Origin: a virus
Lineage: Duplodnaviria > Caudoviricetes
Virus record (IMG/VR): IMGVR_UViG_3300047323_000190
Span: 1,346-65,345 of that record
Reading direction: 5' to 3' (one strand)
DNA: 64,000 nucleotides
A program made the translations under genes and the position numbers. Each line of letters opens with the position of its first letter. The first letter of the stretch is position 1. The notes under the pieces were generated by a model that saw only the letters and a program-made list of their open reading frames with translations, did not search any database and was not told where the DNA came from. Positions 36,368-49,902 of the stretch are shown here, in pieces.

Positions 36368-37540
36368 GTGGCACGACAATACGATCAGCGATTGCGCGAG
36401 TTTGCCGATGCCAGGGAGATTTCCTTTCTCGACGCGCTGAATGAGCACGGCAAGCCGTCGGCCGCGGCTAAGGCGCTTGGGCTGCATCACAGTGTCGTGA
36501 TCCGCGCTCTGGACAATCTGGAGCGTCGGGCGGCGAAGATGGGGTTTAGCCCATCGCACGATATGAATCACGTTGTGCCCGCTGGGTATCGCGTTAAGGG
36601 TGTGTCGACCTACTATGACGACGAGGGAAAGCCTCGCGGTCAGTGGGTAAAGTCAGTTGAGGACAGCGACGCGCGAGAGCGCATCTTGCGTGAATTCGCT
36701 GCAGAGCTGGCTGAAGGCGTTACCGGGCTGGCGCCGATTACGCCGCCGCCCGCTCATGTCGTCGCTGATTTGCTCTGCGTCTATCCGCAAGGCGACCCGC
36801 ACGTCGGCCTGCATAGCTGGTGGGCGGAAGCGGGAGAAGATTTCGACCTGAAAATTGCTGAGCGCTTGATGTGCGCCGCAGTAGATCGCCTTGTGGCAAC
36901 CGCGCCGGCCGCAGAAACAGCCCTTCTCCTGAATTTGGGAGATATGTTCCACGCAGACAATCAGCGCAACGAAAGCCAGTCAGGCCATAAACTCGATGTA
37001 GACGGACGCTGGGCGAAAGTCCAGCAAGTCGGACTGCGCGCCATGCTGCACTGTGTACGTCGCCTGCTTGAAAAGCACCAACGCGTGATTCTCCGTATCA
37101 ACCGCGGCAATCACGACGGCCATTCCGCGTACGCGCTGGCCCTGATGATTTCGTGCTACTTCCACGATGAGCCGCGCGTTGAAGTCGACCTATCGCCCGC
37201 TGTCGCATGGTATTTCCAGTTCGGTAAGGTGCTGATCGGCTCGACTCACGGCGACACGCTCAAAGGCCCGGACATGCTGCCCATCATGGCGGCCGACGAG
37301 CCCGAGAAGTGGGGCGAGACGAAGCACCGCTACTGGTATGTAGGTCACGTCCACCACCAGGACGTCAAAGAGTACCGCGGTGGCGTTGTGGAGTACTTCC
37401 GCACGCTCGCTGCTCGAGATGCGTGGCATGCCGGCCAAGGCTATCGCGCTGGCCGGGATATGCGCCTGATCGTGCATCACCGCGAGCACGGCGAGGTGGA
37501 AAGACACCGTTGCGACGTCGGTATGTTAGAGGCGGCGTAG
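36368..37540 (+). CDS. HTH plus calcineurin-like metallophosphoesterase
   Basis: D.H, GD, GNHD, HGD, GH.HH motifs; N-terminal AA..LG HTH. Confidence 0.85.
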   Translation: MARQYDQRLREFADAREISFLDALNEHGKPSAAAKALGLHHSVVIRALDNLERRAAKMGFSPSHDMNHVVPAGYRVKGVSTYYDDEGKPRGQWVKSVEDSDARERILREFAAELAEGVTGLAPITPPPAHVVADLLCVYPQGDPHVGLHSWWAEAGEDFDLKIAERLMCAAVDRLVATAPAAETALLLNLGDMFHADNQRNESQSGHKLDVDGRWAKVQQVGLRAMLHCVRRLLEKHQRVILRINRGNHDGHSAYALALMISCYFHDEPRVEVDLSPAVAWYFQFGKVLIGSTHGDTLKGPDMLPIMAADEPEKWGETKHRYWYVGHVHHQDVKEYRGGVVEYFRTLAARDAWHAGQGYRAGRDMRLIVHHREHGEVERHRCDVGMLEAA

Positions 37541-37551
37541 TACAATTGCAG

Positions 37552-37634
37552 GGCACGGCTAGGCTTAGCGGCCGAAAGCCCCTTGAACAAGGGTTGCCGT
37601 GCCATCTCTCGTTCGATAATCCTCTGTTCAAGGA
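37552..37634 (+). promoter_or_regulatory. Three-way-junction cis RNA element, copy 1
   Basis: P1-TA-GGC(N6)GCC-GAAAG-P3-P1'; P3 is complementary to the downstream SD region. Confidence 0.6.
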
Positions 37635-37641
37635 TTGCAAT

Positions 37642-38343
37642 ATGAAGACCATCCGCCGCAAAGAGGCGAAGGCCCTTGGGCTGACCCGCTATTTCACTGG
37701 CAAGCCATGTAAGCATGGCCATATCGACGAAAGATTCGCCAGCGATGGGCAGTGCGCCACGTGCAAGACAAAGTCTCGCGATGCTTGGTACGAGAACAAC
37801 AAAGAGCGTGCGCGAGCAAAGAATATCCTGTGGCACAAGAATAACCCCGATGCAAAGCGGTTGAGAAATGCCGCTTGGGCATCCCGCAATCGGGAACAAG
37901 TGCGCGCCAGCATTAAAGCGCATTACTTGGCGAATCCCGAAAAATATGCTGAGTATCGGGCGAATTGGCTGCAAGCCAACCCGGGGAAGATGGCGCCTTT
38001 CAGGAAGAAGTGGAAAGCCGCGAATCCGCACAAGATCGCCGCCGACGTGGCGAAACGTGGTGCGACCAAGCTGCGCGCCACGCCGGCATGGGCTGATCAC
38101 AAGGCAATCGAACAGTATTACCTCATCGCGGGATTCCTGACCTCCGAGTTGGGAATTTCATTCGAAGTCGATCACGTGGTTCCATTACGCAGCAAGGTCG
38201 TGAGCGGGCTGCACGCCCACACGAATATGTCTATCTCGTTAGCGTCGTGGAATCGGTCAAAGTCGAATCGTTGGTGGCCGAACATGCCTGAGCCCGAGAT
38301 CGAACGTCATCGCGCCGACATCGGAATGCTGGAGCCAGCATGA
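37642..38343 (+). CDS. HNH homing endonuclease
   Basis: YFTGKPCKHGH, ATP.WA, VDH.VPL...VSGLH...N.......N.SK.N; AAGGA SD. Confidence 0.9.
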   Translation: MKTIRRKEAKALGLTRYFTGKPCKHGHIDERFASDGQCATCKTKSRDAWYENNKERARAKNILWHKNNPDAKRLRNAAWASRNREQVRASIKAHYLANPEKYAEYRANWLQANPGKMAPFRKKWKAANPHKIAADVAKRGATKLRATPAWADHKAIEQYYLIAGFLTSELGISFEVDHVVPLRSKVVSGLHAHTNMSISLASWNRSKSNRWWPNMPEPEIERHRADIGMLEPA

Positions 38344-47269: not shown

Positions 47270-48796
47270 TTGACACAGATCGTCCAGTACGGGCAGGTCA
47301 ACACCACGGCTTTGATCGTGCCGGACCTGATCGTCCAGATCATCGCGCCGCAAGTAGCGCAACTGAACGGCGTTCCCACGAACGTTGCCGGCTTTGTCGG
47401 TACCGCGACGTGGGGCCCGGTCAACTCCCCGACCATCGTCGGCAGCATGGCTGATTACGCCCGCAATTTCGGCGCGATCCAGAACCGTCTTTACGACATG
47501 GGGACGGCTGTCGCTGCTGCAGTCCTGCAGGGCGCCAACAACTTCCGCTGCGTGCGCGTGACGGATGGTACGGATGCCGCCGCAACCGTTTCCATTCAGT
47601 CGACCTGCCTGACGGCGACTGCCAAGTACACCGGCACGCTCGGCAACTCGGTACAGGTGCAGATCGCCAACGGCTCGCTTGCGAGTTCGTACAAGGCGAT
47701 CGTGACCCTTCCCGGCCAGACGCCGGAAGTGTTCGACAACATCACCGGCTCCGGTAACGCGCTGTGGGTCAACATGGCCGCAGCGATCAACAATGGCCAG
47801 GTCGGTGCGCGCGGTCCCTCGCAGATCATCGTTGCGACGGCTGGTGCGGGCACGACCGCCCCGACGCTGTCGACGTACAGCCTGGTAGGCGGTCTGGACG
47901 GCGCGACGACGATCACCGGCTCGGTGCTGGTTGGTGTCGACACAATCCCGCGCAAGGGCATGTATGCGTTGCGCGGCACGGGTGCATCGGTTGCCGCCCT
48001 CGTTGATTGCTCGGACACGACGACCTTCTCGACGCAGGTGTCGTATGGCCTGTCAGAGGGCACGTACATGATCGGCGCGACGGCCGCTGGCGACACGATC
48101 AGCAACGCGGTGACGACGAAAGCCACTGCTGGCATCGACTCGTACGCGTTCAAGTACATGTTCGGCGACTGGGTCTATTTCCTTGATCCGGTCAATGGCG
48201 GTACGCGCCTGATCTCACCTCAGGGCTACGTCGTTGGCGTGCTGGCGAACCTCGCGCCGCAGAACTCGTCGCTGAACAAGCCGCTGTATGGCGTGGTGGG
48301 CACGCAGAAGTCGTATCAGAACCAGCAGTACTCGAGCGCAGAACTTCAGGCGCTGGCTCAGGCTGGCATCGACGTCATCACGAACCCGATTCCCGCAGGC
48401 AATCAGTTTGGCTGCCGGATCGGTCACAACAGTTCGTCGGACAGCACGCGCAACGGCGACAACTACACGCGGATGACCAACTACCTCGCGGCCACGACGG
48501 CGCAAGGCATGGGCATCTATGACGGGCGTCTGCAATCGGTACAGCCGACCGACCCGCTGCGTCGTTCTGTGAAGGCAACGCTGGACAACTTCTATCTCGG
48601 TCTCCAGCAGCAAAACATGATCGACGACTTCACGGTCCAGTGCGATCTGAACAACAACACGCCGTCGCGCATCGCTCTGGGCTATCTGCAGGCCGATGTC
48701 CGCGTGCGCTACCTCGCTGTCGCCGAAAAGATCCTGATCAACCAGGAAGGCGGCCAGTCCGTGACGATCACCCGTCAGCAAGTCCCCTCGTTTTAA
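47270..48796 (+). CDS. Contractile tail sheath protein
   Basis: GVPTN..G.VG.A.WGPVN.P; C-terminal CD..NN....I..G.L. Confidence 0.92.
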   Translation: MTQIVQYGQVNTTALIVPDLIVQIIAPQVAQLNGVPTNVAGFVGTATWGPVNSPTIVGSMADYARNFGAIQNRLYDMGTAVAAAVLQGANNFRCVRVTDGTDAAATVSIQSTCLTATAKYTGTLGNSVQVQIANGSLASSYKAIVTLPGQTPEVFDNITGSGNALWVNMAAAINNGQVGARGPSQIIVATAGAGTTAPTLSTYSLVGGLDGATTITGSVLVGVDTIPRKGMYALRGTGASVAALVDCSDTTTFSTQVSYGLSEGTYMIGATAAGDTISNAVTTKATAGIDSYAFKYMFGDWVYFLDPVNGGTRLISPQGYVVGVLANLAPQNSSLNKPLYGVVGTQKSYQNQQYSSAELQALAQAGIDVITNPIPAGNQFGCRIGHNSSSDSTRNGDNYTRMTNYLAATTAQGMGIYDGRLQSVQPTDPLRRSVKATLDNFYLGLQQQNMIDDFTVQCDLNNNTPSRIALGYLQADVRVRYLAVAEKILINQEGGQSVTITRQQVPSF

Positions 48797-48806
48797 GGAA
48801 TAGAAC

Positions 48807-49238
48807 ATGGCAATCGGTCCTTTTAACACCGGCCGGGACGTTGTGCTTGACGTCATGACCCCGACCGGCCCGCTGCGCCTGCCCACGACGACGACGAGCT
48901 GGGAAGCAAAGCCGAAGTACAAGGAAATCGAGTCCGTCTCGATCGGCGGCGAAAACAACCACGCGTCGATTCCGATCGGCTGGACCGGAACCATCGGTCT
49001 TGACCGCACGGACAACCAGGTTGACGCCTTTTTCGCGACGCTGGAAGCGAACTACTACGCCGGCATCAACATCGGCTACGCGACGATCACCGAGACGATC
49101 TCGGAAGGTAATGGCTCGGTGAGCCAGTACCGCTACACGAAAGTGTCGCTGCGTCTCGAAGAGCATGGCAAGTTTGTAGGCGATGACCGCGTTCAGGTCA
49201 CGATCGGGTTCTCGGCGTCGCGTCGCGTTCCGCTGTAA
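48807..49238 (+). CDS. Tail tube protein
   Basis: Follows sheath; 143 aa, beta-rich. Confidence 0.8.
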   Translation: MAIGPFNTGRDVVLDVMTPTGPLRLPTTTTSWEAKPKYKEIESVSIGGENNHASIPIGWTGTIGLDRTDNQVDAFFATLEANYYAGINIGYATITETISEGNGSVSQYRYTKVSLRLEEHGKFVGDDRVQVTIGFSASRRVPL

Positions 49239-49245
49239 CGACTAA

Positions 49246-49326
49246 AACCGCAGATAGGCCGGCCAGCCGACAAGCGCGCTTCCCGGGCGCGTTTCTGCGG
49301 TTCCAATACCCGGGTATCTGCGGGAG
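49246..49326 (+). promoter_or_regulatory. Three-way-junction cis RNA element, copy 2
   Basis: AACCGCAGA-TA-GGC(N6)GCC-GACAA-P3-TCTGCGGTT; P3 loop TTCCCG is complementary to SD CGGGAG. Confidence 0.6.
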
Positions 49327-49336
49327 ATATCCCTAA

Positions 49337-49702
49337 ATGACGAAGAAACCCACGCTGGAACTGAACGCGGCAACAGTTGAGCAACCCGCTCCGGCTGCCG
49401 ACAACCTCGTCACGGACGCAAAAGGTCGCGTGCTGAAGGTCGTTGATCCCGACATCCTGGCCGAGAGTCGTCTGATGCGCATGGTCGGCCCGGAAGCAGC
49501 GCTGAACCCGGCTTACATGCGGCTCTACGTGATGCCGGCCGTCTCGGTTGTCGAGATTGACGGCGAAGAAATGCCATTTCCGATGAGCCAGCGCGAAGTT
49601 GATGCAGCGATCAAGCGACTCGATCACGACGGCATCAACGCTGTCATCCAGTATCAGGCGAAGAAGCGCGAAGGCGAAGAGAAGGACGCGGTAAAAAACT
49701 AG
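49337..49702 (+). CDS. Tail assembly chaperone (gpG-like)
   Basis: Follows tube gene; ends in slippery A AAA AAC TAG. Confidence 0.8.
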   Translation: MTKKPTLELNAATVEQPAPAADNLVTDAKGRVLKVVDPDILAESRLMRMVGPEAALNPAYMRLYVMPAVSVVEIDGEEMPFPMSQREVDAAIKRLDHDGINAVIQYQAKKREGEEKDAVKN

Positions 49703-49902
49703 CCCGGAACCCCGCTTTTCAGGAGGCTTGCTGGCTGATGAAGAACGGGGTTCCGTTTCATACCGCTTTCGGAATGCCGAAGAGTCGCGCGGACGACTGG
49801 CAGATAGACAGAATCGAGCGTCGGGCGTTCGCGATCACGTTCTCCATCTTCAACGGTGCTGAGTATGACTGGGAAGCGATGCGCTTCAAGGAGTCGAAGT
49901 GA
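49693..49902 (+). CDS. -1 frameshift extension of the chaperone (gpGT-like)
   Basis: -1 frame open: LARNPAFQEACWLMKNGVPF...DWEAMRFKESK*; its stop overlaps the next GTG. Confidence 0.75.
   Translation, partial: KKLARNPAFQEACWLMKNGVPFHTAFGMPKSRADDWQIDRIERRAFAITFSIFNGAEYDWEAMRFKESK

Follow-up and report, generated by a model that had tools for sequence, protein, structure and literature searches.

Two int-alpA RNAs in a myovirus genome and a candidate cis-acting translational throttle

Two structured leader elements in the genome of a myovirus, recognizable as such by its large terminase, portal and sheath genes, are members of the int-alpA RNA family (Rfam RF02996). Across this family the helices of a small three-way junction covary, and the apical loop of the third helix (P3) is statistically linked to two sites in its own downstream tail, one of them at the next gene's ribosome-binding site. 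The motif itself is already catalogued, and the genome adds two more members to a known family; int-alpA is nevertheless an orphan, with no published function among the literature searched. The comparative pattern leads us, with a confidence only somewhat better than even, to a reading of int-alpA as a cis-acting translational throttle: the loop of P3 would be split between a decoy (box 1) and the Shine-Dalgarno sequence (box 2). The window, meaning the whole 64,000-nt stretch of DNA analysed here, is nearly all of a virus record of 65,345 bp that is complete and bears terminal repeats, and whose relatives are proviruses that carry int-alpA. Within the window the element is an ordinary one, and one of its two members marks what appears to be a mobile HNH cassette.

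Results

Both leader elements belong to the int-alpA family

The int-alpA RNA is a three-way junction of ~55 nt whose junction bases hardly vary; behind it, a short tail reaches up to the start codon of the next gene. From 5' to 3' it comprises an 8-bp P1, UA, the P2 hairpin, the 5-nt GAAAA, the P3 hairpin, a 1-3-nt junction and the 3' arm of P1, and both copies in the window comply with this architecture. The motif is said to originate from a survey of 224 motifs by Weinberg and colleagues in 2017. Rfam types RF02996 as 'Gene; sRNA', its consensus has a U-run directly after P1, and its structure line draws the tail unpaired. Literature text searches found no published account of int-alpA function or mechanism, and 'alpA' is absent from the main text of the 2017 survey (PMC5737381), the supplements of which may say more. 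The two cores in the window are as follows.

37552..37603, + strand: int-alpA core, copy 1 (RF02996, 31.0 bits; R1, 29.2 bits; core MFE fold)
49247..49301, + strand: int-alpA core, copy 2 (RF02996, 39.6 bits; R1, 27.8 bits)

Copy 2, matched over 49247-49314, passes the curated RF02996 gathering cut-off of 35.8 bits. Copy 1 falls below it, with E-values of 8.8e-5 in a 301-nt search and 0.019 in a search of the whole window. RF02996, by way of copy 2, is the sole Rfam family to pass its cut-off in the window; every remaining match in the whole-window scan had E > 1, and these chance-level matches (E 1.2 to 9.5) concern unrelated families such as microRNA precursors, snoRNAs and a leader. Neither the C4 antisense RNA (RF01695) nor any Rfam ribozyme family gave a match at E up to 10 in local or whole-window scans. 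Our own covariance model, R1, was trained on 37 viral examples, none of them from the present lineage. Run over the whole window with filters off, R1 returned copy 1 (E 1.3e-5) and copy 2 (E also about 1e-5) as its top two matches and aligned to both from end to end (positions 1-52 of 52). A third copy was found neither by the Rfam E-value scan nor by R1 with filters off, the next match having E 0.3; the int-alpA copies in the window number exactly two.

The first-pass annotation of this DNA had held the element to be unassignable to any known family, and had proposed a covariance model and an Rfam search, naming a description already in Rfam as the outcome that removes novelty. The Rfam search found RF02996, and R1 recovered both copies. 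The element is therefore assignable after all, and because Rfam already describes the motif, its novelty as a motif is gone.

Structure and tail of copy 1

Copy 1 lies between an exonuclease gene and an HNH-family gene. Its leader contains the following features.

37541..37546, + strand: TACAAT, resembling a -10 hexamer, 5 nt ahead of the copy-1 P1 and overlapping the upstream gene end
37611..37616, + strand: box 1 (putative decoy), GTTCGA, complementary to UUGAAC at 37583-88
37617..37637, + strand: local hairpin predicted to bury the Shine-Dalgarno sequence (RNAfold MFE of 37552-37656, -35.2 kcal/mol)
37625..37633, + strand: box 2, TGTTCAAGG, exact complement of 37581-37589, overlapping the Shine-Dalgarno sequence

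In P1, GGCACGGC (37552-37559) pairs with GCCGTGCC (37596-37603), and the first junction reads UA. P2 is formed by GGCU and GGCC (37562-65 / 37570-73) and followed by the second junction, GAAAG; P3 is formed by CCCUU and AAGGG (37580-84 / 37589-93) around a GAAC loop and followed by the third junction, UU. For the core alone, this three-way junction is the MFE structure, at -24.7 kcal/mol. All of the stems and junction bases previously described for copy 1 are present in the sequence, and so is an exact 9-nt complement, with CCTTGAACA (37581-37589) being the reverse complement of TGTTCAAGG (37625-37633). A P3 closed by a 2-nt loop, as drawn in the first-pass annotation, is sterically impossible; RNAfold instead yields 5 bp and a tetraloop, and the covariance models 3 bp and a 9-nt loop. 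That annotation also lacked the decoy box (37611-37616), the local hairpin (37617-37637) and the membership of copy 1 in a mobile cassette, all of which are added here to the stems and the complement that it had correctly seen.

The Shine-Dalgarno sequence of the downstream gene, AAGGA (37630-34), stands 7 nt before the ATG at 37642 and is overlapped by TGTTCAAGG. Of 20,000 tail shuffles, 53 yield a core-to-tail Watson-Crick complement of 9 nt, and 28 do so if P3 alone is considered. Box 1 can form five Watson-Crick pairs and one G-U pair with the P3 region, giving a duplex of -8.9 kcal/mol, compared with -17.4 kcal/mol for box 2. In the local hairpin, UAAUCCU (37617-23) pairs with AGGAUUG (37631-37), and the loop CUGUUCA is itself complementary to the P3 loop. 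When folding starts from the first base of P1, the RNAfold MFE structure combines the three-way junction with this hairpin (-35.2 kcal/mol); with four more upstream bases, a long helix between P3 and the tail becomes slightly better (-36.0 kcal/mol). For the whole leaders of the two copies, the fold z-scores of -1.76 and -2.03 are modest; 10 and 5 of 200 shuffles, respectively, reach an equally good fold. A scan of 37300-37800 revealed no full sigma-70 promoter, and TACAAT is a hint only.

The HNH gene and its cassette

Downstream of copy 1 the following gene and cassette were delimited.

37642..38343, + strand: HNH-family endonuclease gene, 233 aa, headed by copy 1 (phrog_1035 'endonuclease VII', E 7e-20)
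37492..38294, + strand: 803-bp cassette, absent from the nearest relative, G001

As a single sequence, the 233-aa protein had no match in Pfam, NCBIfam or PDB. Among the matches listed, 6 of 120 homologues carry Pfam HNH and HNH_5 domains (PF01844, PF14279), and an alignment profile of the protein weakly matches Cas9 HNH domains (E 0.024). Across 28 homologues, residues D177, H178, H191, N195, N204 and K207 are invariant; in our reading they would spell an HNH (beta-beta-alpha-metal) motif, that is D-H, then N, then N/H. By these several lines of evidence, the predicted product of the gene after copy 1 is HNH-like.

Homology between G001 and the window spans the upstream exonuclease gene (phrog_704) and ends at 37536. 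The last 49 nt of the HNH frame (38295-38343) resemble the 3' end of the G001 exonuclease gene more closely than does the exonuclease end of the window itself; extending into this displaced original gene end, the HNH frame takes its stop codon from there. Moreover, one metagenome contig joins 37491 to 38295 and skips the intervening 803 nt, as expected of an empty site, with a shorter side of only 30 nt. From the homology break, the displaced gene end and the gap-spanning contig we derive the composition of the cassette: a diverged substitute for the last ~16 codons of the exonuclease gene, a stop codon, TACAAT, the int-alpA leader and the HNH body. The borrowed C-terminal tail of the HNH frame recurs in P0001-P0003, the three closest homologues. 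The relatives G002-G005 lack any homologue of the copy-1 region, and int-alpA occurs at none of four distant HNH loci (L014-L017). Judged by these junctions, copy 1 and the HNH gene behave as an inserted homing-endonuclease unit.

Copy 2 and the post-tube locus

The second copy, for which the first-pass annotation had reported like topology and junction bases but unlike stems, is confirmed at 49247-49301. The features of its tail and the gene that it heads are listed here.

49309..49314, + strand: box 1 (putative decoy), CCCGGG, complementary to the P3-loop CCCGGG at 49282-87
49321..49325, + strand: box 2, CGGGA, complementary to UCCCG at 49281-85
49337..49702, + strand: 121-aa gene headed by copy 2 (phrog_20383, function unknown; tail-chaperone position)

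The helices of copy 2 are P1 (49247-54 / 49294-301), P2 (49257-59 / 49266-68) and P3 (49274-79 / 49287-92), joined by the junctions UA, GACAA and U. Duplex energies are -13.3 kcal/mol for box 1 and -10.0 kcal/mol for box 2, which overlaps the Shine-Dalgarno sequence GGGAGA (49322-27) ahead of the ATG at 49337. The canonical fold of copy 2 has an energy of -37.4 to -37.8 kcal/mol, and an alternative MFE structure at -39.0 kcal/mol pairs CCGCAGAUA (49248-56) with 49315-23.

RNAfold thus favours the alternative between P1 arm and tail by about 1.5 kcal/mol. The 5' arm of P1 together with the junction has an exact 9-nt complement in 49315-23, before and overlapping the Shine-Dalgarno sequence (reached by 75 of 20,000 shuffles). 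As a family feature, pairing of the P1 5' arm with the tail was rejected; the 9-nt complement occurs only in the window and at L003, and across the family the mean of 3.97 is no enrichment over the 3.81 of swapped pairs.

Copy 2 sits 8 nt after the stop codon of a 143-aa gene (48807-49238) in the tube position, itself preceded by the sheath gene (47270-48796), and 35 nt before the 121-aa gene, whose product has no match in Pfam or NCBIfam. A 54-aa ORF (49738-49902) follows the 121-aa gene, and then come a tail-completion-like gene and a 635-aa gene. By position, this arrangement suggests that the 121-aa gene and the 54-aa ORF are a tail-chaperone pair. A sigma-70-type scan found no promoter at copy 2, and a terminator scan predicted none on the strand of either copy.

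Eleven related viral loci with the 143-aa protein were found, the eleventh of which ends at that gene. All 10 loci that reach past it have an int-alpA match in the same post-tube place, with scores of 24.6-48.8 bits, six of them above the cut-off; in whole-record scans of five relatives, a post-tube copy was present in each, and G002 had one extra copy. Among the post-tube loci, P3 loop and box 1 change together, as CCCUGA/UCAGGG, CCCGGG/CCCGGG (the window and L003) and CACCUG/CAGGUG. The Shine-Dalgarno sequence is overlapped by a near-repeat of box 1, which reads CAGGGG in the CCCUGA group and CGGGA in the CCCGGG group; at L004 and L005 box 2 is not convincing.

The extra copy of G002 (L020, 1440-1590) lies directly after a classical hairpin and T-run terminator and before a 166-aa gene. 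Its loop UCCCUGG complements both CCAGGGA and CAGGGA, the second of which is at the ribosome-binding site.

Helices covary and P3 loops match two sites in their own tails

For covariation, 79 matches (55 distinct) from 100 sources were assembled. With the 55 distinct sequences in an alignment that was fitted to the model, 94.6% of the cells are paired, against 31-46% in controls with slid partners. Covariation among homologues, which had been named as a check on the original proposal, is present: 14 of the 15 pairs change on both sides, and none of 500 shuffles attains the covariation score.

A junction-pattern scan of IMG/VR produced at least 115 stretches, 80 of them among the matches listed; from the matches listed, a script extracted 71 three-way junctions (65 distinct). 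Leaving out coding-region false positives (L125, L128 and L136), L086 and incomplete tails gave 37 classes with distinct loops. A site was defined as at least 5 contiguous Watson-Crick pairs to the element's own P3 loop within the first 60 nt of the tail. Among the matches listed, at least two such own-tail sites are found in 29 of the 37 loop classes, which are not phylogenetically independent and represent mostly one pattern-selected subfamily, compared with 33 of 1,200 combinations (2.75%) when loops and tails are swapped. At least one site is found in 35 of the 37 classes, compared with 25.8% on swapping; the exceptions are six classes with one site and two with none. Box starts are mostly 12-14 nt apart in these classes, and the second box usually ends 4-13 nt before an ATG. 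Box 1 is equal to or longer than box 2 in most family members.

A more collapsed test with 14 classes yielded 12 of 14 in the first zone (3.3% in the control) and 11 of 14 in the second (13.7%). In the Shine-Dalgarno zone, 10-14% of swapped pairs reach at least 5 pairs, and since P3 loops are rich in C and U, some match to any Shine-Dalgarno sequence is expected. Covariation with the loop also extends to the box 2 bases located 5' of the Shine-Dalgarno core, as seen in GACGA, GCGGA, AAGGC and TCACAG. By inspection, the GGA of CsrA-type sites is missing from many of the boxes. In phages with two copies, the loops differ and each fits its own tail. The idea of a cis-regulatory anti-Shine-Dalgarno arm, put forward in the first-pass annotation, thereby gains comparative support: the P3 loops vary, each matches its own tail, and one of the matched sites is at the Shine-Dalgarno sequence.

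Among the P2 hairpins, a loop palindrome of 4-6 nt (GGCC, AGCU, UGCA or CGCG) occurs in 15 of 25 distinct hairpins (shuffled mean 9.4, sd 2.3), and most of the remaining P2 loops read GACG or GGCA; copy 1 has no palindrome. Such palindromes might mediate loop-loop dimers.

Of 53 distinct downstream ORFs, 42 were scanned, the other 11 being close relatives of those kept. Their products are diverse and include replication initiators, Rha, KilA-N and anti-repressor-type regulators, Dam methylase, integrase, HNH and endonuclease VII nucleases, and small unknown proteins. In Salmonella phage BIS08P22 (L140, 2501-2594) and Enterobacter phage Tyrion (L141, 2501-2602), the motif resides in unannotated intergenic DNA; in BIS08P22, the match lies between the lysis and terminase genes and stops 2 nt short of a small hypothetical gene there, a location like that of a moron.

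Discussion

A cis-acting throttle as the favoured reading

From the linkage of each P3 loop to its own tail we infer that loop and boxes pair in vivo, that this pairing affects translation, and in which direction it does so. In the proposed mechanism, the leader would act in cis on translation initiation of the next gene, and the apical loop of P3 would serve as an anti-Shine-Dalgarno-like element with two alternative partners on the same RNA. Pairing with box 1, 6-14 nt after P1, would produce a pseudoknot and leave the ribosome-binding site free; pairing with box 2, a near-repeat of box 1 some 12-14 nt further on that overlaps the Shine-Dalgarno sequence, would block the ribosome. Division of the loop between the two boxes would then cap the level of translation. 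As box 1 is usually at least as long as box 2, the default state could be 'on'; no candidate for a trigger that shifts the loop to box 2 emerges from our analysis.

The two copies in the window would set this balance differently. In copy 1 it should lie far towards occlusion, given that box 2 forms 9 bp (-17.4 kcal/mol) compared with 6 bp for box 1 (-8.9 kcal/mol) and that the local hairpin would additionally bury the Shine-Dalgarno sequence; very little of the HNH homing endonuclease is hence predicted to be produced. The decoy of copy 2 would be slightly stronger (-13.3 versus -10.0 kcal/mol), a balance that would fit a partial step-down in translation between the abundant tail tube protein and the following gene. 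Sequestration of the ribosome-binding site by RNA structure is established for the phage homing-endonuclease genes I-TevI, mobE and segB in the T4 review PMC3014915. If the throttle operates as proposed, its two-box anatomy supplies a model, open to direct testing, for the way in which phages limit translation of low-copy or potentially harmful genes, and int-alpA would be a compact, portable RNA part.

Less likely readings: action in trans, on mRNA fate or through a ligand

The cataloguing of RF02996 as an sRNA gene points to a trans-acting alternative, which we regard as unlikely. In this scheme, a core of ~55 nt is released after P1 by termination or processing, and its free P3 loop binds both boxes in trans, on transcripts from read-through or superinfection, such that the downstream gene is repressed, much as for P1 c4 and P4 CI RNA. 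Besides the Rfam typing and the U-run right after P1 in the consensus, some family members have the signals that this requires. A -10-like TANNNT ends 3-9 nt before P1 in 18 of the 37 representatives, copy 1 included, and at least 5 T occur in the first 9 nt after P1 in 8 of 37, mostly from AT-rich phages; in these T-rich members P1 could double as an intrinsic terminator that releases a short RNA. Two target sites on one transcript likewise resemble the c4/CI arrangement. Yet neither window copy has a U-run after P1, no terminator was predicted on their strand, and copy 2 lies inside an operon, 8 nt past a stop codon and devoid of a promoter-like site. Box 1 is so near P1 that intramolecular pairing should win, and the C4 model of Rfam has no match at E up to 10. 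Finally, that the loops of two-copy phages each fit their own tail favours action in cis.

A second possibility retains action in cis but makes int-alpA a switch rather than a throttle. We consider it distinctly unlikely that int-alpA is a widespread phage translational switch, not an sRNA, in which a factor bound by the invariant core (the 30S subunit, a metabolite, or a protein of phage or host) shifts the P3 loop from decoy to Shine-Dalgarno sequence. Were it true, phages would have in int-alpA a portable module that turns accessory genes, replication initiators, anti-repressors and selfish nucleases on or off, and in the present lineage the switch would set protein ratios inside the tail operon. 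The corresponding gated mechanism, with the invariant junction (UA / GAAAA / CU) binding a small molecule, protein or ribosome and the P3 loop moving between decoy and Shine-Dalgarno sequence, appears to us improbable. It would account for junction bases that are nearly invariant while all helices vary, a pattern typical of a binding pocket or a tertiary core, and for two mutually exclusive partners, the usual anatomy of an expression platform. An invariant junction can, however, be purely a requirement of folding, the downstream genes have varied functions that share no metabolic theme, and no ligand candidate emerges.

Just as improbable, in our estimate, is a module for mRNA fate, in which the junction and the loop/tail pseudoknot form a compact knot that protects the downstream 5' or the upstream 3' end or directs processing, and in which the likeness of box 2 to box 1 is a by-product of a decoy that resembles a Shine-Dalgarno sequence. 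Exonuclease-resistant RNAs have a similar topology, namely a three-way junction in which one arm's apical loop pairs with the strand immediately 3' of the closing helix. That copy 2 immediately follows the highly expressed tube gene in all 10 relatives and that box 1 is usually the longer complement would also agree with a role in mRNA fate. Against it, the part of box 2 outside the Shine-Dalgarno core covaries with the loop, which a by-product would not do, and the spacing between box 2 and the ATG is constrained. We consider it highly improbable that int-alpA is a self-cleaving ribozyme or an intrinsic terminator/attenuator: the three-way junction with conserved bases superficially recalls the hammerhead and some AT-rich members have a U-run after P1, but the first junction is only 2 nt long, the ribozyme families of Rfam give no match at E up to 10, and neither window copy has the U-run.

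Comparison with known systems

The elements in the window resemble RF02996 in their three-way junction, junction bases, length, phage context and occurrence in several copies per phage. Copy 1 differs in scoring below the cut-off and in a P3 that is unusually short and self-complementary. RF02996 as catalogued is an sRNA gene; the loop/tail pseudoknot, the Shine-Dalgarno complement and the reading in cis are absent from the Rfam entry and from the literature searched.

The c4 RNA of P1 and P7 and the CI RNA of P4 have their targets in their own operon. Like int-alpA, they are small structured phage RNAs with a loop complementary to two sites on their own transcript, one of them at a ribosome-binding site. 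In contrast to c4, whose model is unmatched here, int-alpA possesses a single loop, followed directly by two near-repeat boxes, and shows no sign of processing or of action in trans. In the leaders of plasmid rep genes (PK-repZ / PK-repBA), a pseudoknot activates translation and depends on translation of a leader peptide and on an antisense RNA. The likeness is that a hairpin loop pairs beside the ribosome-binding site and that the resulting pseudoknot sets translation of the next gene; activation, a leader peptide and an antisense RNA are features seen at neither window copy.

The I-TevI, mobE and segB structures, as described in the relevant passages of PMC3014915, are simple hairpins that differ from int-alpA in having no conserved three-way junction, decoy or family-wide sequence, and their relief comes from late promoters inside the hairpin. 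What they share with copy 1, whose predicted hairpin at 37617-37637 may be compared with them, is an RNA helix that buries the Shine-Dalgarno sequence of a selfish nuclease and keeps its translation low (PMC3014915).
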